Part shown: one piece after another, positions 6,528 to 37,905 of the stretch
Layout of the letters: each line of letters starts with the position of its first letter
Position numbering within the stretch: position 1 is the stretch's first letter
Program-made: the position numbers and the translations under genes
Assembly (NCBI GenBank): GCA_041666325.1
Contig: JBAYHC010000003.1
Location: forward strand, 31,102 to 95,101
Direction: 5' to 3'
Source: Patescibacteria group bacterium
Lineage (GTDB): Bacteria; Patescibacteriota; UBA1384; XYA2-FULL-43-10; 1-14-0-10-43-13
DNA: 64,000 nucleotides
The notes under the pieces: generated by a model
What the model was told of the DNA's origin: nothing
Databases searched by the model: none
The model's input: only the letters and a program-made list of their open reading frames with translations

Positions 6528-7713
6528 CTAACCCAATATTCTTTCCACCTCTCGCATCACTCTCTCCGGTTCAATATCTGATGCGCCAACACCTTCGTCC
6601 GTATAATAGCTATTCGGAGTGCGCCAAGCCGGATCATAGGTTCCACGGCTTTCCCTATATGCATCGCGAGCCTTCTCGTGCATTACTCGATGAGTGCGTG
6701 CGGTCGACCACTGAACAGGGTTACCTAGAATAATCATGATGTTAGGTGTCCCGAATGCACCAGCGAGATGTCCCAAGCCAGTATCTGGTGTTATCGATAG
6801 GTCAGCCATCTCCATAATCACTGGCATGTTATTTAGCGGCTCTTTTGCCCTAACAATACGATGACCGCCACTACGTAAACGATCAACCATCTCACCATAT
6901 CGTTGTGATTTCTGTGGATCTGGATCATCGATGAACAATATCTGCGCATCGGGATATTTGGCCTTTATCTGCTCCAAAACCTCTGCCCATCTTTCCGGTC
7001 TATACTCTTTTGGCATAACAGATGATCCCGCCGAGATAACTATAAGTTTCCTAGAGCGCTCAAGCCCATACCGATCACGAATCTCGTCGGCACGGGCATC
7101 GAAATCAGCGCCCTTTTCCATGAAATGGTTCTCTGCATTGATATTGTCAACCAGCTTTCGGCCAAGCATAATTTCAAAGTTACGCATAATGCGCGCTGGA
7201 ATAGGATCATATTTGACCGCTCTTTGCTCGTTCTCTGGTGATTCTTCCATCTGCCATGTGTTCCAATCCACAGACATAACACGAGACAAGTCGTTAGCAT
7301 CATTACCGGAAAGCCCAAAGACAGAATAATCTTCAAAATTTTTATGAGCATTAATTATAAACCGTTCTTTGTTGTCCCTGAAGGCACTACCGATTTCCTT
7401 ATAGTCTACTATCTCTACAAGCCCTGGATACTGATCATTGACAGATCGAAACAATCCAGGTTGCGTGGTCACAAGTTTGATAGGTTTGCGATGACCAGTT
7501 TGGTCATAATATCGTTTTATAACCTCGAGAATCGGGACTGTCAGAATTGCATCACCCAACGGATAGTCGAAGATGACAACCACTTCATCTGCTCGCTCCA
7601 AGCCCTTTATTAGTGGTGAATGCTCATAAAACTCTGGTTCGTACGGGGCATCACCAACGGCCGATTCCTCAAGCAAAATATTTTCCGCTTGATAATATGC
7701 ACGGTTCATCTCG
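6528..7713 (-). other. GT9 (heptosyltransferase-like, GT-B fold) domain region of the 1355-aa protein.
   Basis: Motif-based, see the parent CDS. Confidence 0.6.
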
Positions 7714-10595
7714 CGATTGACATACTCATCAATGCCAATATACTTCTCGGTATTGTCGCCAAACCGACGCTTGTTGTGGCGCTCAAGCTCCCGCTTATAA
7801 TGCTCTTGCCGAACAGGATCAAGCCTGTTAAAATTCTTGAGTTCATTGAGACGAACGCGCAAAAACTCATACTTCGGCGGCAATTTTGCCACCAGCTTCT
7901 CTGCTTGATCAGCTGAGTTACGATACCTTGAAATTTCAGTAAAATGCTTCTTGAGACGATCACTGCCATGCTCAGCAGAATAATCTGGAACATGCGGCAA
8001 AGGTTCTGGCGACGGTCCGTGTTCAATCGGTTCGAGTGGGGCGCGACCGATAATTGGCGGCATAAATGGAACATCAACCTGTGAATCTGGTGTTGGCAAG
8101 CTCCAAATCTTGTTGTGCTCCTGTGTCACAACCGGAACCTTGTCGACAATCGTGCTATTGCCGACTCCCGGACCTTCATATGTTGCCAGGATGCGGAAAT
8201 TCTCGCAGCCATCTTTACCCTCGCCAAAAGTTTGCGCCGCCTCGCAGAAGCGGAAATTGGGTACCGGATGGCCATCTTGCAGCATCATCTTGCCGCTGGC
8301 GTCAAATTTAAACAGAACCTTTATCAGAGGATTGTCTTTATCAATAATCGCATTGCCGCGACCGTCTACCGGTACATCATAACAAAACTTCTGGGTCTCC
8401 CTCGACATTGAGAAAAGCATCTTCATGCGATTACCAGATATCAAGCGCTGAGCGTTAGTCGAGAGACTGTCATGATAAGATCCACGTGGAGTCATATGAG
8501 AAACATTGAACACGACATTGCCCTTAGGATCAACGCCATTGCTTCCGCCCCACCACAGCTTAAGTTCATTTTTGTCATAAAGCCCCGGGGTGTTGTTGTC
8601 GTACCACAAGCGGCGATGAATACGATCAAAATATTGCTTGTATTTATCTAATATCTCGCCGGCGCCAACCTTTCTGGTCCTGTCAACCATGGTGGTGATG
8701 GGGGTTTTCCGCTCTTCGACATAGACTCCGCTATCTTTGAGTATTCCTCTCGCTTGCGATGTCAGGTCGCCATTCGCATCAAAAGTTAGGCCTTTTACTG
8801 CCGGGACTGGCTCACCATCCTCAATCTTGACGATGTCATATGTGCCATCAGGGTTCTTGGCGCTAAAATCAAAACCCTTGGGCAAAGTGTGCTTGTGGCC
8901 GAGGAGGTTGACTATTGTCTTTTCATCGCCGGGTGCGGCCTGCGCCTCCTTGCCTATTGCCAGCCAACGATTAAGCTGCTGCAACAGTGTGTGCTTTGGC
9001 TGCTCGCCAAAGGGTACATTGTCCTTGCGGCCAACCCAAGATTCGACTCCTCCCTGAAGTTTGTCATCGAAGAAAGCCCTGACCTCCTGTGCCACCATGC
9101 CAACCCCGACACCAATTGCCAGACCTTTGATGCCGGCCTTCCAGGCCCGGGCACGTTTGAACTTCCGAAATTCTTCATTTTTCTGACGGGTGCCGTCAAC
9201 CATTTGCTCCATTTGGGTCTCTCGAAGCGAGCCAAAGAAATCATCGAAGCTGCGGTTATCGGGAATCATTCCTGCCTGCTCCGCGGCGCTGCGCAGAGCG
9301 CTCTTGGCTTGGTAACGAATCTTGGCAAGCTCGCAACGCTCTCGCTCAACCTTCCTCACATCGGAGTATGTCAGCAAGTCAATTTTGTCTCTATCAGATA
9401 TAGTAACACGCGCCTCAATCTCAGCCAGTTGTGCCATCGCCGACTGGAACTGCTCCGGCGTCAGCTCGCGGGGTTCGCCGACTCTGCCTCCTTCGTAGAC
9501 TGCATCACGGATTCCACTCATCAGCTCTTGAGTGCTCTTGGTTTCGTATCTATATCCCTCCATCTCGACGCGGCGTGGCGAACGATCGGGATCCCATTTT
9601 TTGTTCTTAGCCATATCGCGAAAGTGTTTCTTGCGCTCTTCCTCCGTCCGCTTGGCCTCGGCCATCGCGCCAAAGGCAGCCCCGGCGATAGCGCCACCAA
9701 CGAAGGCACCTGTAGCATAGGCGGCCTTCCTGGCAACTGACTGAGAGAGCTTGGTGCCAACACAATAAGCGAGCGCAACAGCAGAAGCAAGCGTAGTCTC
9801 ATTAACCCATTTGCCAACAGGATTGCGATGGATTCGCTCGACGACGCGGTCGACGGCATTGAATTGTGCTTCGGTGCGCACACCTTCTTTGGCCTTACCA
9901 ACATAGACATCAAATTGCAAGTTAAGCCGCTCAAAGGCAGAATCCTTGTTCTCTTCGCGCTCGATCTTAGTCCTGATCTTATTTGCGACCAACCAAAGAT
10001 TGTCGGCGTACATATCACCGCGCTCGATCACGCCCGGCCTGGCACCCTTGAGAGTTGTGAATAACCTGGCCTTTTCTTGGTCGAAGGTTTCCTTGTCTGG
10101 TAATTCTCCGGTGGCATAATCCTTGATCAACTGGCGTATCTGGTCCTTGATACCGCCGACTTGTTCTCTTTCTTCCGGGTTCTGCTCCTGCGTCTCGTCC
10201 AAAAGCTCGCGCACCTCGCCTGCTTCACGATGTATTGCTTCATCAAATTCTTGTGTAAAACGATCAGCCACCGCTTCCATAGCCTGATCATGGGCTGTCT
10301 TGTCGCCAGACTCATTGGCATATAGATTGCCCGACTCCATAATGTTCTGTCGAGCCTTTCGCACCTCTTTGTCTCGGTAGTATTCTCGAAGCCAATTGTG
10401 CTTCCAGACCGCACGCAGCTTGCCTCTAAACCCCCGGGTATCCTCCGGCTTCGCTGTTAGTTTCTCCTCGCCAGTATCAACGGCATGACTTTCGATAGAA
10501 TCAGAGACATCAACGATTGAGATCTTCTCGACTTGGCGACCATTCTCGGCGGCATCAATTTGATCGGGAGTTGGTTGGTTTCCGCTTTCTGGCAT
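6528..10595 (-). CDS. Large (1355 aa) membrane-associated protein with a C-terminal GT9-family (ADP-heptose heptosyltransferase-like) glycosyltransferase domain.
   Basis: AAGGGGG Shine-Dalgarno 6 nt before the ATG. Start is translationally coupled to the stop of the upstream small ORF. Predicted TM segments GAFVGGAIAGAAFGAMA and GLAIGVGVGMVAQ. The C-terminal ~400 aa carry GT9 hallmark motifs: N-terminal VVVIFDYPLGDAILTVPILEVIK and C-terminal SITPDTGLGHLAGAFGTPNIMI, compared with DSGPMHLAAALGTP in WaaC/WaaF. Confidence 0.8.
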   Translation of the reverse strand: MPESGNQPTPDQIDAAENGRQVEKISIVDVSDSIESHAVDTGEEKLTAKPEDTRGFRGKLRAVWKHNWLREYYRDKEVRKARQNIMESGNLYANESGDKTAHDQAMEAVADRFTQEFDEAIHREAGEVRELLDETQEQNPEEREQVGGIKDQIRQLIKDYATGELPDKETFDQEKARLFTTLKGARPGVIERGDMYADNLWLVANKIRTKIEREENKDSAFERLNLQFDVYVGKAKEGVRTEAQFNAVDRVVERIHRNPVGKWVNETTLASAVALAYCVGTKLSQSVARKAAYATGAFVGGAIAGAAFGAMAEAKRTEEERKKHFRDMAKNKKWDPDRSPRRVEMEGYRYETKSTQELMSGIRDAVYEGGRVGEPRELTPEQFQSAMAQLAEIEARVTISDRDKIDLLTYSDVRKVERERCELAKIRYQAKSALRSAAEQAGMIPDNRSFDDFFGSLRETQMEQMVDGTRQKNEEFRKFKRARAWKAGIKGLAIGVGVGMVAQEVRAFFDDKLQGGVESWVGRKDNVPFGEQPKHTLLQQLNRWLAIGKEAQAAPGDEKTIVNLLGHKHTLPKGFDFSAKNPDGTYDIVKIEDGEPVPAVKGLTFDANGDLTSQARGILKDSGVYVEERKTPITTMVDRTRKVGAGEILDKYKQYFDRIHRRLWYDNNTPGLYDKNELKLWWGGSNGVDPKGNVVFNVSHMTPRGSYHDSLSTNAQRLISGNRMKMLFSMSRETQKFCYDVPVDGRGNAIIDKDNPLIKVLFKFDASGKMMLQDGHPVPNFRFCEAAQTFGEGKDGCENFRILATYEGPGVGNSTIVDKVPVVTQEHNKIWSLPTPDSQVDVPFMPPIIGRAPLEPIEHGPSPEPLPHVPDYSAEHGSDRLKKHFTEISRYRNSADQAEKLVAKLPPKYEFLRVRLNELKNFNRLDPVRQEHYKRELERHNKRRFGDNTEKYIGIDEYVNREMNRAYYQAENILLEESAVGDAPYEPEFYEHSPLIKGLERADEVVVIFDYPLGDAILTVPILEVIKRYYDQTGHRKPIKLVTTQPGLFRSVNDQYPGLVEIVDYKEIGSAFRDNKERFIINAHKNFEDYSVFGLSGNDANDLSRVMSVDWNTWQMEESPENEQRAVKYDPIPARIMRNFEIMLGRKLVDNINAENHFMEKGADFDARADEIRDRYGLERSRKLIVISAGSSVMPKEYRPERWAEVLEQIKAKYPDAQILFIDDPDPQKSQRYGEMVDRLRSGGHRIVRAKEPLNNMPVIMEMADLSITPDTGLGHLAGAFGTPNIMIILGNPVQWSTARTHRVMHEKARDAYRESRGTYDPAWRTPNSYYTDEGVGASDIEPERVMREVERILG

Positions 10596-10604
10596 ATTAC
10601 CCCC

Positions 10605-10922
10605 TTAATAACCTAAGTAGCTCATTCTGAAGTTGATCAAGGCCTGTGCCGTCACCTCGGTAATGTCGGGAATGGCGCGCTGAAGAAACTGTTGAACGTT
10701 ATTACCATCACCCTCACTCAACAGAGTACTAAGCTCTTCGATTTTTTCCGGTGGTGTCGCCGCCAAAAGAGCAGCATGAATATGCTCCTCTACCTTCTCC
10801 CGCAAATCTTTTCTGGCCTCGAATTTGGAGTCCTCATCGAGGTCGCTTAGCGGGCTTTCTTCTATGAGTCTGTCAACAAATATCTCGAGTTCGTCTTTGT
10901 TTTCTTCCCCTGCCATAGCCAT
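10605..10922 (-). CDS. Small acidic helical protein, paralog of 6173..6508.
   Basis: ORF with AAAGGA ribosome-binding site before the ATGGCTATG start. The track start at 10949 is a TTG with no RBS, so 10922 is preferred. Its stop is coupled to the start of the 1355-aa gene. Confidence 0.55.
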   Translation of the reverse strand: MAMAGEENKDELEIFVDRLIEESPLSDLDEDSKFEARKDLREKVEEHIHAALLAATPPEKIEELSTLLSEGDGNNVQQFLQRAIPDITEVTAQALINFRMSYLGY

Positions 10923-10959
10923 TCCTTTCGTAAATAGATATTTACTCAAAAAATCAGTC

Positions 10960-11000
10960 TGCTGCGAGATCTTTTTATCATTATACTGATGAATCAGTTA
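10960..11000 (-). promoter_or_regulatory. Candidate sigma70 promoter for the small-giant-small-giant operon (TATAAT -10 with a TTACGA-like -35).
   Basis: Minus-strand reading gives ...attacgataactgattcatcagTATAATgat upstream of the first small ORF. Confidence 0.3.
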
Positions 11001-11097
11001 TCGTAATAGTAGCTGTCTATCCGCCATGACCATAACTATCGATTTATTTGTCTAGAACATTATTTATTGGTACTTTTGCATCCGATGTTTTTGAATA

Positions 11098-11160
11098 AAA
11101 AAGAGGCCCGGTGCGACTCGCTCTACCATGGGGTAGAATGAGTCATTGCACCGGGCCGTG
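11098..11160 (-). terminator. Rho-independent terminator of the GC-island gene.
   Basis: GGCCCGGTGC...GCACCGGGCC stem with a nested TCTACC-ATGG-GGTAGA palindrome, followed on the minus strand by TCTTTTTTATT. Confidence 0.55.
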
Positions 11161-11197
11161 TCATAGGCACAGAACCTTTCTTGGGACCAGCGGGCCC

Positions 11198-12247
11198 CTA
11201 GCCGAAGAAGAAGAATCTGGCGTCCGGCCACCACAGCACGTTCAGCACCGCGAGGGCGAAGATGACGACACCGACGACGATGAGGATCCGAACCCACCTC
11301 GGGATACGTCCGATCCCCATGACCCATTCACTGATGCCGTAGGCGATGCTGGCTGCGAGGAGAAATCCCAGCCCCAGCTTGAAGATGCCCCAGAGCCACT
11401 CCCAGATGGTTCGGCCAGAGCCGGAATCCGGACTAGCCGGTGGGGCTCCTGCCCCGGGCGCGGGTGCGCCGGGCGCCGGTGCTGCTCCGGGTGTTCCGGG
11501 CGTGGGCGTACCAGGTGCCGGGACCACCACGGCAGGCAAATCATACCGCCCAGCGGGCGGAGACGGCCGACCGGTCTCAGCTTCGAGCAACCGCACCCGA
11601 TCATCGAGCGCCTTGTCGTTGAACTGCAACCTCCCTATCTCCCTCTTCCGGTTGCGGTTTGCCTGTTCCAGGCTCGCTACTCTGTCTTTGAGCCGAGAGA
11701 CAGACTGCGACAGCGCATTGAGCCGAAGCTCGAACTTGGCTGCCCAGCGTGCCACCTCGACCCTGACCATCTGCCGGATACTGGCGATCGAAGCGCCGAA
11801 GCGCTGGCCGGCCGACTGGTGTCGGCTGCTGCCGCGCCAGGCATGGCGGCGGCGCTCGGCGTAACGGCGCTTGTCGTAGCGCTTGCCGCCGGCGGTGACG
11901 CCGGTATTGCCACTAGACGGGGCCAGGGCGGCCGAAGGCCGCTTGGCGGGCGAGGTGGTCGTGACCGGCGGTGTACCGGAGCCCGGCCAATCCGGATCGG
12001 GTGCCGTGACCTCCGTGCCCGGGGCAGGTGCCGGCGACGTTGCCGTCGCAGGCGTAGCCTCTGCCGGAGCCGAAGCCTCGGCAGGCGCCTGCGGCGCGGC
12101 TGGCTTCTCGGGCTCGGTCGGCGCCTGGGGCGCGGATCCACCGTCCTCGGTGTAGACCTCGACGGCGCCCGGCGCCGCCATGGCGCCAATGTTGATCGAA
12201 GCGAACACGAGTGCGGCCACGAGGGCCGCCGCGAACAATACCTTCAC
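11198..12247 (-). CDS. Secreted or membrane-anchored Pro/Ala-rich protein encoded in a ~67% GC island. It has a signal peptide and a C-terminal TM segment.
   Basis: GTG start 7 nt after AGAGGGGAG gives MKVLFAAALVAALVFASINIGAMA-AP. Pro-rich tracts APQAPTEPEKPAAPQAPAEASAPAEATPATATSPAPAPG and PAPGTPTPGTPGAAPAPGAPAPGAGAPP. Central coiled-coil-like segment. C-terminal hydrophobic segment ILIVVGVVIFALAVLNVLWW. GC content is far above the flanks. Confidence 0.5.
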   Translation of the reverse strand: MKVLFAAALVAALVFASINIGAMAAPGAVEVYTEDGGSAPQAPTEPEKPAAPQAPAEASAPAEATPATATSPAPAPGTEVTAPDPDWPGSGTPPVTTTSPAKRPSAALAPSSGNTGVTAGGKRYDKRRYAERRRHAWRGSSRHQSAGQRFGASIASIRQMVRVEVARWAAKFELRLNALSQSVSRLKDRVASLEQANRNRKREIGRLQFNDKALDDRVRLLEAETGRPSPPAGRYDLPAVVVPAPGTPTPGTPGAAPAPGAPAPGAGAPPASPDSGSGRTIWEWLWGIFKLGLGFLLAASIAYGISEWVMGIGRIPRWVRILIVVGVVIFALAVLNVLWWPDARFFFFG

Positions 12248-12428
12248 GGTCGTACTCCCCTCTTCTGCCGCCCTTACGGGACGGCGCTTTCGCCGGCCCT
12301 GATGGGCGGCTCGAAGGACCATTTGAATCTGGCCTTCTGGCAATTGAATCCGGCTTTGGCGTTACTTCGCCAGCGCAGATACAATGTGTCAAAAGACAAC
12401 CTTACCCCTTAAAAAAATGCGACAATGT

Positions 12429-12504
12429 GTTGCACGGCTACGTACAGGCGGAGGGGGAACCTGTATTCCATCCCGACAAGTCGGGGGAGGAAGAGCCGTG
12501 CAAC
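12429..12504. ncRNA. Structured RNA-like element, copy 1 of a tandem pair. It is a three-way junction closed by an 11-bp P1 stem.
   Basis: P1 is GTTGCACGGCT/AGCCGTGCAAC. Hairpin 1 is ACAGG-[CGGAGGGGGAA]-CCTGT. Hairpin 2 is built around CCCGAC-AAGT-GTCGGG. On the minus strand it is followed by a short hairpin and a U7 tract (12411-12440). Confidence 0.4.
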
Positions 12505-12603
12505 ACGCTGTCGCACATACACATAATCGACTAACCTTGAAAGTGCCTGCTCCAATTCACCTTCAAGGAGAATAGCATCAGTCCAAAGAAAAAGGGCAAC
12601 ACT

Positions 12604-12685
12604 GCGCTGTATAACCCACCATAGGCGGAGGGGGAACCTACGTCCCTACCCCGATAAATCGGGAAGGGAAGAGATTATACAGCGC
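12604..12685. ncRNA. Structured RNA-like element, copy 2. It has the same architecture as copy 1 with compensatory stem changes.
   Basis: P1 is GCGCTGTATAA/TTATACAGCGC, a completely different sequence from copy 1 but still paired. Hairpin 1 is AGG-[CGGAGGGGGAA]-CCT with an identical 11-nt loop. Hairpin 2 is CCCGAT-AAA-ATCGGG. Confidence 0.4.
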
Positions 12686-12921
12686 GCTGCTGCCCTAAAT
12701 TGTCAAATGCTTTCTGGCGGCATGTGGTATCTCACCGTCAGAACATAGCATTGTATCATATTTTAAAGAGCTTGTCAATAGCTAACGCATTCTTGGCTTT
12801 TGTTTTCGATCTACCCATAGAATAACACATTTTCGGCAAAAACTAAAGACCCCTCGATCGAGAAAATCAGTATTTTATTGTTTACCAGACTAGATAACAA
12901 GCAAATGAATAGTTAACGGTG

Positions 12922-14199
12922 CTAGGTTTGCCGCAACTCTTTCACTAGGGAGAGGTAGACATAAAGGTTATGTATGGTGGTGAGCCTAATGCCTGAGATT
13001 TCATTTGACCGCAAAAGATGGGCAATGTACGCCCGCGAAAAACCACCATTGTCAGCCTCCGCTCGATCTGAGCTGCGGCCGATCTCGCCTCGACTATTGG
13101 ACTCCATCGGTGCTCGACAGACAGGACAACTACAATCTGAATCAATCACATCAGGATCTTCGCGAAACCCAGAGTTCAGCAAATTGACCAATGCATACCG
13201 TTCTTCATCCTTTGTCCAGTTGTTTTTCGTTCTTTTCTGGACGTAAACACTGCCATGTCGCGCCAATCGAGTTGGCAGAACGCAATCGAACATATCCATG
13301 CCAAGTCTGGCCGCTTGGATAATATCATCCGGGGTGCCAACTCCCATGAGATAGCGCTGCTTGTTCTCGGGCAAAATTTCCCCCATCAGCTTAACCGTCT
13401 GCCACATATTGCGGGTTTCGAGGTCAACAGCCAAGCCACCGACTGAATAGCCATCAAAATCCATCTCGATTAATTTTTTGGCACAATCCCGTCTTAGTCC
13501 CTCATCCATTCCGCCCTGAACAATACCATGCAGCATGGGACGAATTGTGAATTTTGAATCATTAATCATGGGCTTGCCATTCTGCGACTCATGCATAATT
13601 CTTGATTCTTGATTCTTGATTCTTGATTCAAAATAGCGTTTTGCCCGTTCGGCCCATCTGATGGTTAATTCTGTTGCATGCTTAATTTCGTTGTAAGATG
13701 CTTTCCCGCTTGGGCAAACATCAAGCGGCATAAGAATATCTACGCCCAAATCAAGCTGGATCTGTATCACCTTCTCCGGAGTGAAAAAATGCTTGGACCC
13801 ATCAAGATGAGACTTGAACTCAACACCATCCTCAGTAATCTTTACTAGCGACTTGTCGCCATTGATTTTGTTCTTGCCCCGAGAATTGTGTCCCGAACCG
13901 AGACTGAAGACCTGGTATCCGCCAGAATCAGTCAAAATCGGCCCGTTCCAGCGCATGAAATCATGCAGGCCACCCAAACTCTTGATCATCTGCTCGCCAG
14001 GACGAAGGTAGAGATGGTAAGTGTTGGACAAAATAATGTTTGCGCCAACGCTTTTTAATTCGTTTGGCAACATCCCTTTGACACTACCGACCGTTCCCAC
14101 AGGCATAAAAAACGGCGTTGGGATAATACCGTGAGGTGTCTCGAGCTCGCCCACCCGAACGCCGCTCTCTAATTTTTTGATGAGTCTAAATTGAGTCAT
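12922..14199 (-). CDS. tgt: Queuine tRNA-ribosyltransferase.
   Basis: Translation begins MTQFRLIKK...GIIPTPFFMPVGTVGSVKGM...ILSNTYHLYLRPG...LTDSGGYQVFSLG and carries a C-terminal CxCxxC..H zinc site. The track ORF extends 31 codons further 5' through non-conserved sequence. Confidence 0.9.
   Translation of the reverse strand: MTQFRLIKKLESGVRVGELETPHGIIPTPFFMPVGTVGSVKGMLPNELKSVGANIILSNTYHLYLRPGEQMIKSLGGLHDFMRWNGPILTDSGGYQVFSLGSGHNSRGKNKINGDKSLVKITEDGVEFKSHLDGSKHFFTPEKVIQIQLDLGVDILMPLDVCPSGKASYNEIKHATELTIRWAERAKRYFESRIKNQESRIMHESQNGKPMINDSKFTIRPMLHGIVQGGMDEGLRRDCAKKLIEMDFDGYSVGGLAVDLETRNMWQTVKLMGEILPENKQRYLMGVGTPDDIIQAARLGMDMFDCVLPTRLARHGSVYVQKRTKNNWTKDEERYALVNLLNSGFREDPDVIDSDCSCPVCRAPMESNSRGEIGRSSDRAEADNGGFSRAYIAHLLRSNEISGIRLTTIHNLYVYLSLVKELRQT
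13565..13600. repeat. (ATTCTTG)n heptanucleotide microsatellite, about 5 copies, inside the tgt coding sequence.
   Basis: attcttgattcttgattcttgattcttgattc read directly from the sequence. Confidence 0.7.
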
Positions 14200-14339
14200 A
14201 TGAGTATTTGTCACTAAGGAGATCGTTATTGCCCACTTGTTATCATCCCGAGTAATGCATATCGAAATCAAGGAATCCCTCCACTCTCGCAATCACACAG
14301 GTCGGGATGACAGGCAAAGGGTTTATACAGCGCATTATA

Positions 14340-25895: not shown

Positions 25896-26846
25896 TCAGA
25901 ATGCCGCTCCAGGCGGAGGCGTTGTCGGCGCCCCGGGCTGGTTGGCGTAGTCGTTGTTGGTCCACGACGTCGGTGGCAGAGGGGGTGGGCCTGAGCCACC
26001 GCCTGACCCCGGCAGACCGCCCGCGCCACCCGGCAGGGTGGGCGTGCCGCCCTGGCCCCCGTTGTCGTGGGGGGTGGTGACGAGCGGATCGTTGGGCGGG
26101 GGCGGCGGGTTGCCGTTGCCCGGTCCATTGCCAGGCTTGCCGCCCTGGCCGGGCTGACCACCCGGCGGGTTGATGATGTTCGTGTTGGTATTGCTATTGT
26201 TAACACGAATATTGTTCTGCTGCCTGGGGGTATAGCCCAGGCTACTGGAATGCCCCCAGCGCTCGGTGCGCGGAGCGCGCGCCGACCGGTACGACATCCC
26301 AAGGTCGACTTCGCCTCGGAAACGCCGCACGATCTTCGTGCGCCTCACGATCGGAGCCGGCGAAGCCGGGACCTCCGGGAGATCGACGTGCACCTGCGTC
26401 GCAGGTGCCTCGATCTCGACCTCAGTCTCAAACCTCTGGTCCCTGGGGGCGGGCGGGGGCGGGCAGACGTGCTTGGAAACAGACCAGCAGGCCGTGGAGA
26501 TGTTGCCGCAGCCTGCCTTCGAGATCGAATCCTTGTTCAGCGCCACGAAGACACGGGCGTTGAACTGGGTTCCCACCTGCCGGCCGTAGAAAACGCTACC
26601 TTCCGGCCAGCGAATGCGCCGCTGAACCCAGCCGCTCTTACGGTGCAGCGTGGTCGTGCCCCATACCGCGTACGGAGCGACGCCGACGACCTCGCCGGGC
26701 TGCATCTGCAGCACCTGGGCCCGGTCGGGGTTGGGATTCTGGAGCAGGTAGGAGACCTCGACGGTCTCCGTCGCCTGAGTTGCCGAAAGCGGAGCTGCCG
26801 CTGCGAAGGCCGCCAGGAGGACGACCAGCCACATGCGTATCCTCAT
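25896..26846 (-). CDS. Secreted protein with a Gly/Pro-rich C-terminal tail, encoded in a GC-rich island.
   Basis: Signal peptide MRIRMWLVVLLAAFAAAAPLSA. C-terminal low-complexity tail PPGGQPGQGGKPGNGPGNGNPPPPPNDP...GGAGGLPGSGGGSGPPPLPP. Start overlaps the stop of the upstream gene. Confidence 0.6.
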   Translation of the reverse strand: MRIRMWLVVLLAAFAAAAPLSATQATETVEVSYLLQNPNPDRAQVLQMQPGEVVGVAPYAVWGTTTLHRKSGWVQRRIRWPEGSVFYGRQVGTQFNARVFVALNKDSISKAGCGNISTACWSVSKHVCPPPPAPRDQRFETEVEIEAPATQVHVDLPEVPASPAPIVRRTKIVRRFRGEVDLGMSYRSARAPRTERWGHSSSLGYTPRQQNNIRVNNSNTNTNIINPPGGQPGQGGKPGNGPGNGNPPPPPNDPLVTTPHDNGGQGGTPTLPGGAGGLPGSGGGSGPPPLPPTSWTNNDYANQPGAPTTPPPGAAF

Positions 26847-27914
26847 CTACTTGCCCTCCTCCAAGGTCATGCGGTACTTCGCGTCGCCGCTGACCTTGAT
26901 GGTCGTCTTGTACAAGGTGCGGGTCTGCCGAGCAAACATTCGCACCACCACCACCGTTCCGGGCGGTGCCTTCACAACCAAAGGCTTGCCATCCGTCTGA
27001 GCCTTTTCGTGCCCGTCCGGCATAGCATATCGCTTGTAGACCTCCTTCCCGTCCGCTTCGACAACGGCGTCATACGGACCGCCGCCATAGCCGCGAGGCG
27101 GGAAGACCTTGATGGTCACCCGGCTTTCGCCGGAGTTAGTCTGCGAGGCGGCGTCTTGGATACGCTTGACGGCCTCATCGGTCGTCTGCCGCACATCATG
27201 ACGCCACTTCTCCAGCTCGGGGGTGTTCTCGACAGTCCCATTGCTGGTGCCCTCGTCGACTACCTCCTCGCTATCCTCGCCAGCGGCCGCGTCTGGGTTG
27301 GTCGGCATGCCACCGAAGTGATAGCCAGCCATCCAGCCCGCCAGCTGGTCGCCGGTGCAGTTCCCGCCCGGTCCCTCGACCAGGAAGTATTGCACGAAGT
27401 TGTTGTGCTTGGTCTTGCCGCGGAGCGAGAGAACGGGAATCCAGAGCGCGTAGTAACGGCTCAGCTTCCCGCCATCCAGCTCGACGATGGGATACATCGC
27501 ATGCGACCCCAAGCGCTGACCTGACGTGCTGACGAAGTCGACGAACCCCTCGCCCGGAGTCAAGGCTACCGGTGTTAGTCCCTTGATGATCCCGCTGGCC
27601 TCCTTGGAGGATGCTATCGGGATCGGGGACCACCTGATGCTCTTGATCTCCCCGCGCGAGGTTGAGATGTCCAGTCGCCGTCGGAGCGACGTGCCTCTGA
27701 CTGCCGTCAGGGCCTTGTCGGAGCGATCCGACCAGGTCCAGAACGGGTCACCCGAGGTAGCGCCCGACGCATAGTGATCGACGGCCACCGAGACGGTGAC
27801 CTCGGCCTTCTCGTACTGATTGTTGAGGCCGATGAGCCAACCGTCCGCCGCATTCGCGTTGCCAGTGATCACAGCAGACAGCAGGATCACCAGCAGCCAT
27901 GCTGCTTTTTGCAT
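26847..27914 (-). CDS. Secreted hypothetical protein in the same GC-rich island.
   Basis: Signal peptide MQKAAWLLVILLSAVITGNANA after an internal Met. Translationally coupled to the downstream gene. About 65% GC. Confidence 0.6.
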   Translation of the reverse strand: MQKAAWLLVILLSAVITGNANAADGWLIGLNNQYEKAEVTVSVAVDHYASGATSGDPFWTWSDRSDKALTAVRGTSLRRRLDISTSRGEIKSIRWSPIPIASSKEASGIIKGLTPVALTPGEGFVDFVSTSGQRLGSHAMYPIVELDGGKLSRYYALWIPVLSLRGKTKHNNFVQYFLVEGPGGNCTGDQLAGWMAGYHFGGMPTNPDAAAGEDSEEVVDEGTSNGTVENTPELEKWRHDVRQTTDEAVKRIQDAASQTNSGESRVTIKVFPPRGYGGGPYDAVVEADGKEVYKRYAMPDGHEKAQTDGKPLVVKAPPGTVVVVRMFARQTRTLYKTTIKVSGDAKYRMTLEEGK

Positions 27915-28079
27915 CTTCCCTCCCCTTTCTGCGTGATCACCTGCTGTGCAGGCGGTGATCGTCTGTGTGTGTACTATCTTCCTGGCAGCCTGCCCTGCCA
28001 GAAGATCATTCGGACTTAGCCTTCGCTTAGTCCGAGACATATGAAATGATTAATTAATTATTCACGCTAGCTCTCGCTC

Positions 28080-33118: not shown

Positions 33119-33616
33119 TCACTTGGCCAGCGCTTGCCGGCGCCGCTCGAGACCGAGGGCTCTTGACATTCTCTGAATCTCCCGATCTACCGCGCGCATA
33201 TTGAATTGCACGGCGTTGACAGTAGAGTAGGAACTTTCAGAGAGACAATTACCCTGCTTGTCCCGAACGATCACCCAGACGTAGTTGCCATAGTGGCCAG
33301 GCGTTACCTTGGACTCGACGATAAAGTCGGCCCCGGTAATACTGGTCCGCTTGGCACCCGCCTCGATGATCGCCTGCATTGCCCTGGAGACAAGCGGTCC
33401 GCCGTTCTTGGAAGCGACCGTCATGCCCGCGATGTCCGCCTCTTTGAGAGCACTCTTCACACTCTCAGGCAGCGCATCGTAGCGCTTGACGATCTTCGCC
33501 TCCTCGGTAGTCAGCAGACGCGGCTCGTCGTCCTTAACAGCACAACCGGCACAAGCCAGCGCAACGAACAGTAAGACAACGACTTTTTGTATTTGTTTCA
33601 CCCCCTCTCTGAGCAT
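33119..33616 (-). CDS. Lipoprotein (lipobox LACAGC) in a GC-elevated region.
   Basis: MLREGVKQIQKVVVLLFVALACAGCAV.... Confidence 0.5.
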   Translation of the reverse strand: MLREGVKQIQKVVVLLFVALACAGCAVKDDEPRLLTTEEAKIVKRYDALPESVKSALKEADIAGMTVASKNGGPLVSRAMQAIIEAGAKRTSITGADFIVESKVTPGHYGNYVWVIVRDKQGNCLSESSYSTVNAVQFNMRAVDREIQRMSRALGLERRRQALAK

Positions 33617-33698
33617 TCTCTGCTCAAGGTGAGCTCGGTTGCGGGTCGGACCCACACCCGAGCAGAGATACGAGGAGCTGCGCTTGCCGTTTTGCTGC

Positions 33699-34073
33699 TC
33701 ACTTGGCGCGAGCAAACCGGCGCTTGTAATAATCAACCTCCCTCCCTTCGTCATTGACCAGATGGTAGACGGCGATGTCCAGCCACTGGCCCGCCTCGAC
33801 CGGTCCGTTGGGATCGACGGTGCCGTCGTACTCGATCCGACCAGGCAGAGCGATCCTGCCCTCGTCGTACTCGAGACAGACGACATCCTGCTCGGTGTCC
33901 CCTCTGAGCTTGCAGGCAGCGGAGCCCGCCGGAGCCTTGACCCAGACCTCGACGAGGATGTCGCCGTTGGCCTGAGGCACGTACTCCTCTCGGGTGATCT
34001 CGCCGCCCTTGGTCTGGGCACAGCCGGCGAAAGCGAGAATGCCGAAGATAGCGATCAGTGCCAGTGCCTTCAT
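33699..34073 (-). CDS. Lipoprotein (lipobox LAFAGC).
   Basis: MKALALIAIFGILAFAGCAQ.... Confidence 0.55.
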   Translation of the reverse strand: MKALALIAIFGILAFAGCAQTKGGEITREEYVPQANGDILVEVWVKAPAGSAACKLRGDTEQDVVCLEYDEGRIALPGRIEYDGTVDPNGPVEAGQWLDIAVYHLVNDEGREVDYYKRRFARAK

Positions 34074-34711
34074 GAAACCCTTCCTTTCTGTGAACACACT
34101 ACAGTCTCCTCGCAAAGAGCTCCTTGAGCCCTTGTGCCAATAGACTGAAATGGCAACCCATTACAACAAAATCATTTACCAAAAACACACACCCTTTTGT
34201 CGCGTACGCTACAAAAGTGATGATGTTTTCAACCCTCAGAGGATAGCCCGATCACAAGATCGGGCAGGATCTATCTGAGAGCAGAAACCGGGGGCGGTGG
34301 AGATAATAGTATGGATGCTCGACTTGATAGCCAAAAACCCACACCCTCGTTCTCTCCACCAAGGCAACGAGTAGCCGTTTATAGCAACGGCGGTTGATGC
34401 CTGCCGGACACACTGGTGTGCCCAGCCCCTACGACGACATGCGGTCATCGCACAACACGACGTTATCTCGTGTTGCCGGTCTTTTCGGGCAGCGGAGTAG
34501 TTACCCACTTTTCCTCCACCGTCTTGCCGCAATCAGCCAAGCTGACACTGGCGGCAAAATAGGCTGAGCGGGTCCATGCCACCTGCGCCGAGCTCCTCGA
34601 TTAGGATCGACGACGCAAGTTAAGGCTCCTCTTTCTGCTTAACCTACCCTTACTGCTCAACCACTGGCAACAATGCTACCTAAGGTGGGTACCAGATAGT
34701 TGAGTTTTCCC

Positions 34712-34790
34712 GATGAGCATTCCGCTCTGAGTCAACCCTGAACCCGACGTGGTTCAGGGGGATATCAGAAAGGATCTGAGGTGGTGAAGA
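34712..34790. repeat. Repeat R1, containing the hairpin CCCTGAACC-n6-GGTTCAGGG.
   Basis: gagcattccgctctgagtcaaccctgaacccgacgtggttcagggggatatcagaaagg. Confidence 0.5.
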
Positions 34791-35819
34791 TAAGAACCGT
34801 CTTATCCAGACGTTCCCCGCTCTCTTCACGCAGGGCAGCCTCCCCGGCCAGGCCCTAGATGGCCCCGGCCTATTGAGTGAGCTCTAGCGGTACCACTATC
34901 TGCTGTGGTTGGCTATGTTCCCTCCCAAACAGATTTCGGGAAGCCGAGTAATCGCCCAGTTTTCCTCGGCCGTTTCACCGCACCGGTCTGATCCTTCCCC
35001 AGGGAAGAATAAGTTCCGGGGCGATAAATTCATCGAGACCAGTAAACAGCACCGTGTGCCGCCACTAATCTCACCCTTTGCGCCGGCTAGTTGAGTTGTA
35101 ACATGAGTCTATCAACCTCATGCCACCGGGTGTTCAACAATCATAGCCTGGCAATTTCAGGAAGCGTGGCCTTAATCCTGTAATTCATCCACGCTTTTCA
35201 CCGCACCAGTGGGTCTCGTGACCGTTCAAGGCGGTCGCGCCTTTCGGCTCCCGAGGTAGACCAACTGGAGGCGGCAAACAACTCGAAGGTGCTAGCACTA
35301 GGCCATCATTTGACCACCAGCACATTCTCGTCGCCTTTTTCATGACTGGGCGAATGACGGGATCGCGATTTCAGGTCGCGGCAGGTATCCCGATGCCCAG
35401 TCGCCGATTCCTTCCTCGGAGGATGGCCCGATCTCTAGTGGATCAAGGCCGGATCTTTCCGAAGAAAGAGTGGGGGTGTGGAGAATATAGTCGCCGTGGC
35501 GACCCTCGTCACCTCCACCACACCAGTTACGAGTGGGCTGAGTTACACCTCAGGTGCACCTGAGACTTGGCTCTTATGGCGGGCCTTTATCCGCCCCTGT
35601 GCCCATCTGGGACCCCCAATTTCGGGACGGCAGATAACTATCCGTCTTTCTCTGCCGGCTCGCCGCACCACACTGGGGGCGGCAAGTATCATCAAAATGT
35701 TGCGATGTCCGGTACATATCCCGGCTTGCTTTTTTTGACGACCCCTTCTTGTTGTCGATCCAGTAGGTGATTCACCCCGGCCTGTGCCGTTCGGATACTG
35801 CCTCGACAACCATTTTTAT

Positions 35820-35895
35820 TGAGCTTCCGCTCTGAGGCAACCCTGAACCCAATACGGTTCAGGGGGGATATCAGAGGGGAAATTGTGTCACCTCG
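35820..35895. repeat. Repeat R2, about 85% identical to R1.
   Basis: gagcttccgctctgaggcaaccctgaacccaatacggttcaggggggatatcagagggg. Confidence 0.5.
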
Positions 35896-36079
35896 ATTTG
35901 GATGAGTGTGGTTCGCCCTGGGTCCTCCAGGAAACAGGCGCCACGAAGGTGACAGCGGGGATCATATCTGCGCTTTCCTTTACCGCGCTTTTCTTATAAG
36001 TTTTGCAGCCCTTGGGCTATAACTTCTTATAAGACGGCCTGATACTAGCCGGATCGTTCTCGATCATCGAAGCTTCAAG

Positions 36080-36376
36080 CTACGCTGGGCTGACGGAGAG
36101 CCCCAGCTTGCCGCTCAAGAAAGCAGCGGCCACAGCCGGAGTCTTCGCCAGACTCTCGGGATACGGCAGTGATACGATCACGCCTCCCCCGACGTAGCTC
36201 CGCTCGCCCTCCCCGCGCAGTGCGTTTTCCACGTAGTGGATTCGCCCCGAGCAGGTGGTGCAATGCGAGCAGCTAATGCGGGCGACTTCTATCGCCACCT
36301 TGTCTCTGTCAAAAGAGACTTGGCGCGAATTCCGCCATCCGCCTACCCACACACGAAACCCGTGTTCAGGCATCAT
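36080..36376 (-). CDS. Possible small Cys-containing protein (CSHCTTC), weakly supported.
   Basis: GGGGGGTG ribosome-binding-like motif before ATGATG. 98-aa ORF inside the otherwise non-coding stretch. Confidence 0.3.
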   Translation of the reverse strand: MMPEHGFRVWVGGWRNSRQVSFDRDKVAIEVARISCSHCTTCSGRIHYVENALRGEGERSYVGGGVIVSLPYPESLAKTPAVAAAFLSGKLGLSVSPA

Positions 36377-36949
36377 TGTTCACCCCCTTCCCTTTTTGGT
36401 GCCTAATGCCGGCCTTTGCCTTGCGGCCGTACCGGTTTGACAAACCGCCTCAACCAGAAGTCTCATCTTTCTTCCAATTGATTTGGCTAGCCAATCAGCA
36501 GTTTCAACTTTCCAGCCATCAACTATTTGATAGCTCGAGGTTGATCCCGATCCGCCAAAGGCGAGATCGGGACAGGTAGGGATATAGGTGTTGGGCGCAG
36601 GGATTATGTCATCATCAGGGTTCGGGCCCGACGAGACCTCATTCTCCTGCCAGGCGCACTTAGGCCTTTTAATGAGTAGGGATTCCCCTATACGCCCCCT
36701 CAAGGGGAGCGAAGCGGGGGCCACCCTGGGCACACTCCTGCCACTGCCCGACCAGCGGGCCCAACACCTCTTCGGTCAACCGGCCACAGCCGTGCTTGAC
36801 TGAAGTCTTCATTGCGGTGAAGTGGAAGGGAGTTGTAGCAGACCGTACCCCGATATGCGGCTAAGGTGGTAATTATATTTCCTGCCGTCGGGGGGAGTGC
36901 CACAACTCTGCTTCCAGCTCACTGCAAATATTGTTTATTTCTCTTTCCC

Positions 36950-37091
36950 ATCATCCTGAGCGAAGCGACCGTGTCCCTCGTAGCTTTAGCGGAGTGAGAT
37001 GGATCTAGAGCCGATGCATCGGTTCACATGCGGTCGCCGCGGCGACCTAGATTCTTCGCTTCAAAGCTACATCGCTCAGAATGACAATTGG
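36950..37091. repeat. Boundary palindromic element B (TCATCCTGAGCGA ... TCGCTCAGAATGACAATTGG) at the right edge of island 3.
   Basis: About 140-bp imperfect palindrome with nested inverted repeats (GTAGCTTTAGCG/CGCTTCAAAGCTAC, GGATCTAGAG/CCTAGATTC, CCGATGCATCGG). It shares its terminal motifs with element A. Confidence 0.5.
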
Positions 37092-37423
37092 TTCTTTGTC
37101 AAACTGACTTGACTTATACTGTGGTTAATGAAAAATCTTATGTTTGCAACCTATTGGCTTAAATTAAGCCTCACATGGCTGATTTATTTATAAGTTTCTC
37201 ATTCACCAGGACACAATGCTACCATATTGTTTTTATTTTGTCAATGCTAGTTGACATATTTATATAACAGTTATTACATTTGTCAAGTCAGGGACTACAA
37301 AATTACCACCAATTTATTTAGTGAATGCTATGAAAGTGTTATATATAGCGGACAGATTGTCATCACCTGTTTAGCTTTATTCAAGACTAATTTCTTACTA
37401 TTTTGTTCGGTGATGGCAGTAAG

Positions 37424-37452
37424 TATTGACAATATTATTATTCTGTGCTAAC
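37424..37452 (+). promoter_or_regulatory. Strong sigma70-like promoter (TTGACA-17-TAACAT) in an AT-rich region that also carries TTGTCAA/TTGACA operator-like palindromes.
   Basis: agtaTTGACAatattattattctgtgcTAACATtgtgagc. tgtcaatgctagttgaca at about 37240. Confidence 0.45.
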
Positions 37453-37454
37453 AT

Positions 37455-37905
37455 TGTGAGCGTAATCCTGCAGAAGGGAGGACTCAAACCGGGAAGTGCC
37501 CCAACACTGGGGGCGAGACGACTGTCTAGCTTCCCGGGGCAAACCTCCGGGAATCGTCTGGTGGTATCACCGTTCGGTCTCCGGAGGGAGGTGGAGCTAT
37601 GGATACATGAGTATCCTGCGCTTGCCGGGCGCCTTATGGGCGCCCGTGGAAGCAATAGCTTCGCCATCCTGCCTGAGGAAGAAAGAAATGGATGTCTGAA
37701 AAAGAGAGGCGGCCAATTGCCGCCGGATGGAAGACGATCGTGTCATTTTCGCTCGTTGGCTTGGCCGTCGGCAAATCAGCCAGCGGCTAGGCACACAGCG
37801 ATAGCCTGAGTGCGCCCGAGGACGGGTCACTCTCGAAAGGATCTGCTACATCATATGGGCAGATAGCGACCACAAAGGCGCCCCGACTAGCGGGGCGCCC
37901 ATTTT
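37455..37905 (+). ncRNA. Candidate ~450-nt non-coding RNA of unknown class, GC-rich, lying between the promoter and the intrinsic terminator.
   Basis: No credible ORF; the only track ORF starts inside the promoter and is low-complexity. Internal GC hairpins such as CGGGCGCC-ttat-GGGCGCCCG. Terminator hairpin at the 3' end. No plus-strand gene lies downstream. Confidence 0.35.

Follow-up and report, generated by a model that had tools for sequence, protein, structure and literature searches.

A GC-rich gene for a predicted surface protein beside an apparently undescribed small RNA in Patescibacteria: fresh import or long-standing variable slot?

When one gene is far richer in guanine and cytosine (GC) than the genome around it, is it a newcomer, or can the difference be an old property of the place where it sits? 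The question is raised by a block at 11060-12400 of a 64,000-nucleotide stretch from a Patescibacteria group bacterium (assembly GCA_041666325.1, contig JBAYHC010000003.1, positions 31,102 to 95,101 of the forward strand), which we call the window. The block carries a single gene, the island gene, for a predicted secreted and membrane-anchored protein, and it lies next to a small-RNA gene that follows tgt, the gene for queuine tRNA-ribosyltransferase. An original prediction, made from the letters of the DNA, took the block as acquired from a high-GC donor, possibly an actinobacterial host, or else as a chimeric join in the assembly. We find that the GC elevation is old and persistent, and not the un-ameliorated trace of a recent transfer. 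The explanation that we favour, with modest confidence, is a clade-specific, hypervariable surface-protein slot in a conserved locus, where GC richness has been maintained over a long time.

The contrast in composition is as strong as first described, and as abrupt near both 11060 and 12400. The block has 65.3% GC against 47.5% in the rest of the window, and the maximal-scoring GC segment, 11105-12320, has 68.1% against about 47%. In 200-nucleotide windows the GC content peaks at 0.70-0.755 between 11300 and 12300, is 0.33 at 10900-11099 and about 0.50 past 12400, and among all windows of 1341 nucleotides the block ranks first (robust z 5.6). The maximal segment is the body of one transcription unit, made up of a minus-strand coding sequence and its own terminator. 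The GC content of the coding sequence at the three codon positions (GC1, GC2 and GC3) is 0.67, 0.61 and 0.77, i.e. GC3 > GC1 > GC2, while GC3 across 20 core genes is 0.40-0.55; at four-fold sites it is 0.76 against 0.45 +/- 0.05 in the core genes (range 0.31-0.54). A match in codon usage and GC3 between the island and core genes had been named as an argument against acquisition, and as they do not match, acquisition is not refuted on that ground.

It could be argued that a native low-complexity protein would be GC-rich solely through its amino acids, and alanine, proline, glycine and arginine indeed make up 160 of its 349 residues. When the protein is recoded with the usage of the 20 core genes, however, 57.9% GC and a GC3 of 0.48 are expected, against the observed 68.5% and 0.77. 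The GC3 shift runs through all three parts of the gene, N-terminal tract, coiled coil and C-terminal part alike, and the same excess appears in island open reading frames (ORFs) that are not of low complexity (island 2b of the window, and the ORFs of the related contig L007). About half of the GC excess comes from the composition rich in these four amino acids and the other half lies at silent sites, and amino-acid bias as the only cause is very improbable.

That the block is a real protein-coding gene is shown by its GC at the codon positions, its ribosome-binding site, its terminator, the signal-peptide and transmembrane architecture of the product, and a homolog. The ribosome-binding site GAGGGGAG at 12262..12255 of the minus strand lies 7 nucleotides upstream of the GTG start, as had been predicted; the alternative starts are ATG 12322 (374 residues; used by other gene callers) and TTG 12343. 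The strong terminator that had been proposed at the end of the block is also there, a long hairpin with a U-run past the stop codon, with arms at 11105-11114 and 11148-11157; the suhB model of Rfam aligns solely to this terminator. If the block were instead a GC-rich structured RNA or other non-coding element, its ORFs would be there by chance. GC-rich DNA does yield long ORFs in several frames, and the window has other GC-elevated, ORF-free stretches that fold well, but neither the features just named nor a homolog that aligns at the protein level across coiled coil, linker and transmembrane helices would then be expected; the coding sequence folds nearly like the coding controls (z -1.2 on the sense strand, two of seven tiles below -2), with no Rfam match, and we find a non-coding element hard to believe. 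The long ORF on the opposite strand that the original prediction pointed out as a shadow does exist, but it is a by-product of GC richness and not a gene. Its first codon position overlies the third position of the real gene, its GC at the three positions (0.73/0.60/0.66) is not gene-like, and at the homologous locus of contig L086 the antisense ORFs are of 44 and 89 residues only.

The predicted structure of the product (AlphaFold run on the single sequence; mean predicted local distance difference test score, pLDDT, 61) begins with a hydrophobic helix at residues 3-22 and a disordered tract of about 100 residues rich in proline and alanine (23-125). A short basic helix then leads into the 80-residue helix 146-225, which is modelled with confidence (pLDDT 86-95), and a disordered Pro/Ala/Gly linker separates this from two C-terminal transmembrane helices at residues 281-310 and 317-339. 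The signal peptide, the AP/PA/TP tracts and the coiled-coil-like core that had been read from the sequence agree with this model, while the single C-terminal membrane segment gives way to two. No known family was recognised, in line with the earlier remark that the protein does not resemble housekeeping proteins: searches of Pfam, NCBIfam, PHROGs, PADLOC and PDB sequences gave sub-threshold coiled-coil matches only. Flagellin, TraB and DruG were rejected as relatives, as such sub-threshold noise. The type IV pilin methylation motif PF07963 has no match in the island protein.

The strongest evidence on the age of the GC richness comes from a relative. The closest available relative of the large GT9-domain protein encoded downstream of the block is P0009, 49% identical, on metagenome contig L086 (SRR22315506; 46% GC). 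At the cut 5' end of this contig (3..557), directly upstream of a 55%-identical DUF5663 gene, there is a gene fragment of 68% GC (62-70% along the fragment) with a GC3 of 0.76, against 0.41-0.43 in its neighbours. Its product aligns with residues 175-333 of the island protein (BLASTP E = 2e-12, 31% identity; phmmer E = 2.7e-9) from the coiled coil, where RVSNLESANRARRDEI is matched to RVASLEQANRNRKREI, through the Pro-rich linker into both transmembrane helices, and after the gene a hairpin with a CCGGGCC stem and a T-run stands in the same place as the terminator of the window. The two proteins are 31% identical and the neighbouring genes 49-55%, and with a divergence beyond that of the neighbours the silent sites of this pair should be saturated. 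Yet both genes are 68% GC in genomes of 46-48% GC, and a recent, un-ameliorated import can therefore not explain them. A scan of genome contigs with the 1355-residue protein, aimed at an empty site, found no relative. Contigs L085 and L087-L089, reached through homologs in the protein database, do not qualify as empty sites, since their DUF5663 and large-protein genes stand in other neighbourhoods where synteny is lost; they have neither a GC island nor a copy of the RNA element.

The same layout, which starts from the L1-L10-L7/L12-tgt block, is found in ten further loci, all with tgt, a strong promoter, one or two copies of the RNA element and then a GC-elevated gene, which we call the slot gene. 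They belong to a clade of Patescibacteria in which tgt is 51-70% identical to that of the window. In every locus GC peaks within roughly 70-400 nucleotides after the RNA element, and four-fold-site GC is higher in the slot gene than in the flanking conserved genes at 11 of 11 loci (difference +0.08 to +0.40, mean +0.25; sign-test p 0.0005). None of the 11 loci, among which there are no same-genus relatives, has an empty slot, as it is each time filled by a GC-elevated gene with signal-peptide and transmembrane segments. All slot ORFs encode a protein that starts with a signal peptide or pilin-like helix and has a transmembrane segment at its C terminus. Downstream, most loci have a DUF5663-like gene and a protein of about 950-1350 residues, both of normal GC and in varying order.

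What fills the slot is variable. Homology between slot proteins is detectable in pairs, the window with L086, L008 with L014 (3e-18), L007 with L093 (3e-10) and L009 with L012 (2e-6). The DNA of L093 and L012 is 75-76% identical from tgt through both RNAs and the leader to about 40 nucleotides before the start codon; over the signal peptide there is a weak similarity (30% over 47 residues), and then it is gone. Judged from these sequences, the pattern looks like that of a surface-protein gene that is hypervariable behind a conserved promoter, leader and signal peptide, and not like an insertion at an attachment site. Slots can also hold more than one gene (at least four in L007, two in L093), and differential loss from multi-gene arrays is a possible source of the variability. 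The large proteins downstream of the slot in L093 and L012 have no detectable tblastx similarity in spite of the 83% identity in tgt, so hypervariability extends over everything downstream of the RNA gene, with GC richness limited to the first gene or genes there. The slot gene of L008 (10976-12187, plus strand; 69% GC within a locus of 41% GC) is the only one with PF07963 (27.8 bits against a cut-off of 21.2), and in its product this type IV pilin motif is followed by a coiled coil, a transmembrane segment and a long Pro/Gln-rich tail.

The part of the locus that does not vary includes the RNA. Two tandem elements of about 100 nucleotides each, E1 and E2, lie between tgt and the island gene and share an exact 17-mer; the promoter in the window points at both of them and at the island gene, and a TTGACA-17-TAnAAT promoter (10-12 of 12 matches) stands before the first copy in 10 of 11 loci. 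E2 consists of a long outer stem and two hairpins, one of them CCCGA-YUUR-UCGGG, the other with AGGUUCCCCCUCCGCCU, which is invariant. The elements fold far better than shuffled sequences (z = -4.6 to -5.6). A pattern scan of metagenome contigs yielded further copies; the consensus of five, from MAFFT and RNAalifold, is a three-way junction with compensatory changes in 15 of 34 pairs, and a covariance model built from the five matches the tgt-sense strand in L005-L010, L012, L014, L091 and L093, often twice in a locus; most of these relatives were found through tgt. In an alignment of 16 copies, drawn from 10 genomes, the share of paired cells is 97.9% and drops to 28-43% when the partners are slid, and 30 of 34 pairs have changes on both sides, values that none of 500 shuffles reaches. 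This larger alignment was fitted to the model, while the five-copy run is independent of it; compensatory changes are seen in independent sequences. G-U pairs point to the gene-sense strand, YCCCCCUCC is an invariant P3 loop, and a U-run closes every copy. The first copies in L012 and L093 have the variant loop GGCCCCCCCCUCCGGCC, most loci have a conserved transcript start AUGUUCUGAGGGUGAGAG directly after the -10 box, and L009, L012 and L093 have a second TTGACA between the tandem copies, a hint that these are paralogous RNAs with a promoter each.

Rfam has no match in the whole window at its gathering thresholds, and at E <= 5 none that overlaps 12414-12698 on the relevant strand. A ribosomal RNA, tRNA, tmRNA or RNase P was rejected, with no match in Rfam or by ARAGORN, and signal recognition particle (SRP) RNA because by eye the conserved SRP domain IV motif is missing; an integron attC site does not fit the own promoter, the strand-favouring G-U pairs and the invariant loop. 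Five matches of viral contigs to the invariant 17-mer score 21 bits against the model and are not the element. Comparative evidence of this kind supports well a structured RNA family that is apparently undescribed. The loop has its complement in G-rich ribosome-binding sites such as GAGGGG (window) and AGGGGGAA (L091), although any strong ribosome-binding site would match it.

Where, then, could the gene have come from? The idea of a chimeric assembly, a high-GC fragment joined into a Patescibacteria contig, has the abrupt change in GC at both edges to recommend it and is almost certainly wrong. The exact island protein occurs on four contigs from different samples and pipelines (JGI 3300037810, 29.9 kb; ENA ERZ27249449, 687 kb; SRR6484324, 18 kb; SRR18595301, 4.6 kb), all 100% identical to the window across both junctions. 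Two proteins from NCBI metagenome-assembled genomes named "Patescibacteria group bacterium" fall in the same cluster of at least 90% identity, the junction between the gene and DUF5663 is kept in L086, and the order of RNA element and GC-rich gene is kept in ten other loci. A recent transfer of a single gene from a high-GC host, e.g. an actinobacterium, which was the main proposal of the original prediction, starts from better ground. Silent-site GC is foreign to the genome, and proteins of this kind, secreted and rich in alanine and proline, are typical of Actinobacteria, as is a GC content of about 65%. A donor was nevertheless not to be found. A word-indexed search of 5.8 billion clustered proteins returned the island protein itself only, as did a profile of the window and L086 proteins against the same 5.8 billion, and an exhaustive phmmer search with residues 120-349 against 1.84 billion representatives gave no donor-like homolog, its four non-self matches (E = 7.6e-5 to 8.7e-4) being to coiled-coil and Pro/Ala-rich stretches of unrelated proteins. 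Degenerate-pattern scans for family members in JGI metagenome contigs and in viral contigs found none, and tblastn against phage and plasmid records found no homolog; there is accordingly no identifiable donor lineage outside the clade in these protein, viral, phage and plasmid collections. With the homolog at the same position in the divergent L086, 31% identical and of the same GC, and with the slot GC-elevated in 11 of 11 loci, neither the actinobacterial or host donor nor the recent date of the acquisition holds up, and we consider such a transfer highly improbable.

A more serious alternative is that the locus is a hot spot of integration or replacement, fed by unsampled GC-rich sources or by a pool of GC-rich cassettes that circulates in the clade, so that each lineage carries a different foreign gene and the window and L086 happened to receive related ones. 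Several observations weigh in this direction and against our own explanation. The GC edges are sharp, and GC1 and GC3 fit the equilibrium of a genome of about 65% GC with no sign of amelioration, as they would in a fresh import (the yardstick being the regression lines reportedly set out by Lawrence and Ochman in 1997). Tetranucleotide usage corrected for GC is only mildly atypical (island-core r = 0.50 against 0.67 +/- 0.06 for core chunks), and the sequence is too short for this measure to decide. The cassettes differ between lineages and are mostly non-homologous, jackhmmer against 6981 decoy ORFs does not unify their subfamilies beyond the pairs, and the pairing is incongruent with tgt relatedness, as the nearest tgt of L093 is that of L012 (83%). 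Subfamilies of this kind fit replacement by transfer equally well as fast divergence. Between L093 and L012, the closest pair, similarity is lost abruptly, and L007 has its 3.4-kb island of several genes. The window has two more GC islands, at 25.9-28.0 kb and 33.1-34.1 kb, with four-fold-site GC of 0.71-0.78 like the first but with no RNA element, so the GC phenomenon extends beyond this locus. Genomic islands are also reported to be abundant and frequent in Patescibacteria (PMC12455944). In L086 the contig is cut inside the gene, with the upstream RNA element out of view, and only position and a weak homology suggest vertical descent of the cassette; all the loci are, moreover, metagenome contigs. 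Finally, we know of no mechanism that sustains an offset of +25 points in silent-site GC at one bacterial locus.

A hot spot has its own difficulties, however. No collection searched holds a donor-like homolog. The block is a single ORF that matches nothing in Pfam, NCBIfam or PHROG, and it has no integrase. The window lacks tRNA and tmRNA genes, and around the block no direct repeats were convincing. Four properties would mark a genomic island, and of these only a deviant composition that includes silent sites was found (68% against 47% GC; four-fold-site GC 0.76 against 0.45), while patchy presence, mobility signatures and an identifiable donor were not. Similarity between L093 and L012 breaks after the conserved leader and signal peptide, not at the 3' end of the RNA gene, and every occupant has the same signal-peptide and membrane-anchor architecture, which random imports would not have. 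The cassettes of the window and L086 share only 31% identity where the neighbouring genes share 49-55%, and are still equally GC-rich. We therefore give the hot spot a lesser but real chance, and a variable slot with long-maintained GC richness remains our preferred explanation, while an older foreign origin of the cassette, or circulation of cassettes within the clade, may be part of its history.

We hypothesize that a variable slot of this kind would work as follows. The slot protein would be exported by the Sec pathway, lose its signal peptide and stay tethered to the membrane by the C-terminal helical hairpin, with an extended Pro/Ala stalk and the 80-residue helix, likely a coiled coil, outside the cell. 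Export, surface location and expression are thus predictions from the model and the sequence signals. Such a protein could be a surface fibril or spacer, of the kind that is used for contact with host cells or exposed to phages, and the variability of the slot may then reflect pressure from hosts or phages. The body of the protein would diverge fast or be swapped among members of the clade, leaving counterparts that are recognisable only in pairs, as promoter, small RNA, leader and signal peptide stay conserved. Since the GC elevation persists in the slot, it must be kept up locally, perhaps by GC-biased gene conversion at a recombination hot spot or by selection that acts on the mRNA or the DNA. 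The leader between E1 and the gene has a perfect TTGACA -35 box and no acceptable -10 box, and because no acceptable promoter was found there, transcription of the island gene probably needs read-through of the terminator-like RNA elements. The full combination, a slot-linked small RNA and a very fast occupant whose silent-site GC is actively kept some 25 points higher than in the rest of the genome, we put forward only tentatively.

Comparison with known systems helps to separate what is familiar from what is not. The emm gene for the streptococcal M protein and the genes for variable surface lipoproteins of Mycoplasma are hypervariable surface-protein genes with a conserved 5' end. The slot would resemble them in the plan of its protein (signal peptide, extended or coiled-coil ectodomain, Pro-rich wall-spanning segments, C-terminal anchor), in conserving promoter, leader and signal peptide while the mature part varies, and in having alleles that do not follow the species tree, here in the incongruence with tgt. 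It differs in that its protein is homologous in sequence to none of these families and is anchored by a transmembrane helical hairpin in place of LPXTG or a lipobox, that a small-RNA gene precedes the slot gene, and that the gene is at least 20 points GC-richer than the genome at silent sites; to our knowledge, a silent-site GC excess is not a feature of those systems. With a classical genomic islet it shares the sharp compositional edges, the orphan gene for a secreted or membrane protein and a variable region beside a stable RNA gene. Unlike an islet, it has no mobility genes, direct repeats, tRNA or donor; every relative examined has a GC-elevated gene in the slot, and L086 has a homolog in the same position. 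The gene is also GC-richer than its genome, whereas orphan and island genes are usually AT-richer than theirs. Apa of Mycobacterium tuberculosis is an alanine/proline-rich secreted antigen of the high-GC Actinobacteria, and antigens of its type have a Sec signal peptide, long disordered Ala/Pro tracts and about 65-68% GC in common with the island gene. There is no detectable homology, though; the island protein has a coiled coil and a transmembrane hairpin at its C terminus in addition, and its gene stands in a syntenic context specific to Patescibacteria. The RNA, for its part, resembles RsaE/RoxS of Firmicutes (RF01820) in its length of about 100 nucleotides, its own promoter, its intrinsic terminator and an invariant unpaired C-rich motif, YCCCCCUCC, whose complement is found in ribosome-binding sites of the GGAGG type; the C-rich loops of RsaE/RoxS pair with Shine-Dalgarno sequences. 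Unlike RsaE/RoxS it has no Rfam match even at E <= 5, has a three-way junction in a 21-bp stem, is often tandem and keeps a fixed place between tgt and the variable gene. Variable surface-protein genes are thus of a known kind, and the new elements here are the RNA family and the persistent GC offset; our searches of the literature turned up no account of a module of tgt, RNA and slot. The coordinates of the features are collected in the table.

Table. Features of the island gene and its surroundings in the window (strand given as + or -).
Feature	Position	Strand	Details
tgt (queuine tRNA-ribosyltransferase), upstream neighbour	12922..14292	-	ends the L1-L10-L7/L12-tgt block
Promoter, near-consensus sigma-70-type	12750..12778	-	TTGACA, 17-nucleotide spacer, TG-extended TACAAT; 11 of 12 matches
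RNA element E2	12591..12698	-	three-way junction; fold z = -5.6; 99.6 bits; inverted repeat I2; U-run after it
RNA element E1, second tandem copy	12414..12519	-	fold z = -5.3; 105.4 bits; inverted repeat I1; seven U after it
Leader, E1 to GTG	12248..12413	-	holds TTG 12343, ATG 12322 and GAGGGGAG; GC richness starts at 12320
Island coding sequence	11198..12247	-	349 residues from GTG 12247
Signal peptide (predicted), residues 1-24	12247..12176	-	AMA/AP cleavage motif, read by eye
80-residue helix, residues 146-225, preceded by basic helix	11812..11573	-	AlphaFold
Transmembrane helical hairpin, residues 281-339	11407..11231	-	AlphaFold
Intrinsic terminator	11097..11157	-	GGCCCGGUGC...GCACCGGGCC stem, 33-nucleotide interior, then UCUUUUUU (U-run)
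Shadow ORF	11111..12412	+	433 residues, antisense; not a gene
DUF5663-like small protein, downstream neighbour	10605..10949	-	normal GC; 55% identical to L086 counterpart
1355-residue protein with C-terminal GT9 domain, downstream neighbour	6528..10595	-	normal GC

The small downstream neighbour scores 16.9 bits against DUF5663 (PF18908) and its counterpart in L008 19.1, with a gathering cut-off of 23.7; the precomputed matches for the window protein are labelled weak, and the orthologous neighbours in L085 and L087-L089 carry PF18908 hits without such a mark. In L085, L087, L088 and L089, from Patescibacteria without the tgt linkage, a small DUF5663 gene is paired with one for a protein of 1300-1750 residues, which has a GT9 domain, a Ser/Thr kinase domain or no recognised domain, and some of these loci have duplicated DUF5663 genes or a second pair.

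The second GC island of the window (25896-28040, minus strand, 61-72% GC) consists of two adjacent ORFs with signal peptides, 25896..26846 and 26847..28040, with GC3 of 0.80 and 0.77 and four-fold-site GC of 0.78 and 0.74. Neither Pfam, NCBIfam, PHROG and PADLOC nor the RNA model gave a match there, and its tiles fold somewhat better than controls on both strands. The third (33119-34115, minus strand, 58-63% GC) has the overlapping candidate lipoprotein ORFs 33119..34021 and 33699..34115, with lipobox-like motifs ending in AGC, four-fold-site GC of 0.71 and 0.74 and no family match. It adjoins a structured stretch of about 3.1 kb (34120-37220, probably minus strand; 52-60% GC) that has no ORF of more than 117 residues on either strand. 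Tiles of 150 nucleotides have a mean z of -2.4 there, with 13 of 20 below -2, against -0.3 to -0.5 in coding controls, and a promoter-like site, TTGACA-17-TGnTAGCAT at 37244..37216, points into it. We found no Rfam match at E <= 0.1, ribosomal RNA signature motif, tRNA or similarity to phage DNA, and regard the stretch as a candidate for a very large structured non-coding RNA. On the plus strand, at 37426-37900, a promoter-like TTGACA-17-TGnTAACAT (37426..37454) is followed by about 440 nucleotides that fold at z ~-4.5 and end in a GGCGCCCCG/CGGGGCGCC hairpin with a T-run (37877..37899). Searches for RNase P, tmRNA and Rfam families did not recognise it, and it is a candidate for a novel structured RNA gene.

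The island gene is a case where composition alone misleads, as it would normally be scored as a fresh import and is here an old feature of a conserved locus. This calls for caution with GC-based calls of horizontal transfer in Patescibacteria, and with the inference of hosts from such islands. The machinery by which these organisms interact with their hosts is largely unknown, and the slot protein, predicted to be exposed and fast-changing, is a good candidate for a host-contact molecule or a phage target. The upstream RNA with its strong promoter is a new RNA to study, open to transcriptomics, and if our explanation is true, an RNA whose loop resembles an anti-Shine-Dalgarno sequence would be a new class of regulatory RNA that gates the expression of the slot. 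A persistent silent-site GC offset at one locus would also offer a clean natural test, in bacteria, of GC-biased gene conversion against selection. It would mean that there is a locus-specific GC-biasing process in ultra-small bacteria, through biased gene conversion or selection on mRNA or DNA, and other GC-rich orphan genes for secreted proteins in the same genome may share it.

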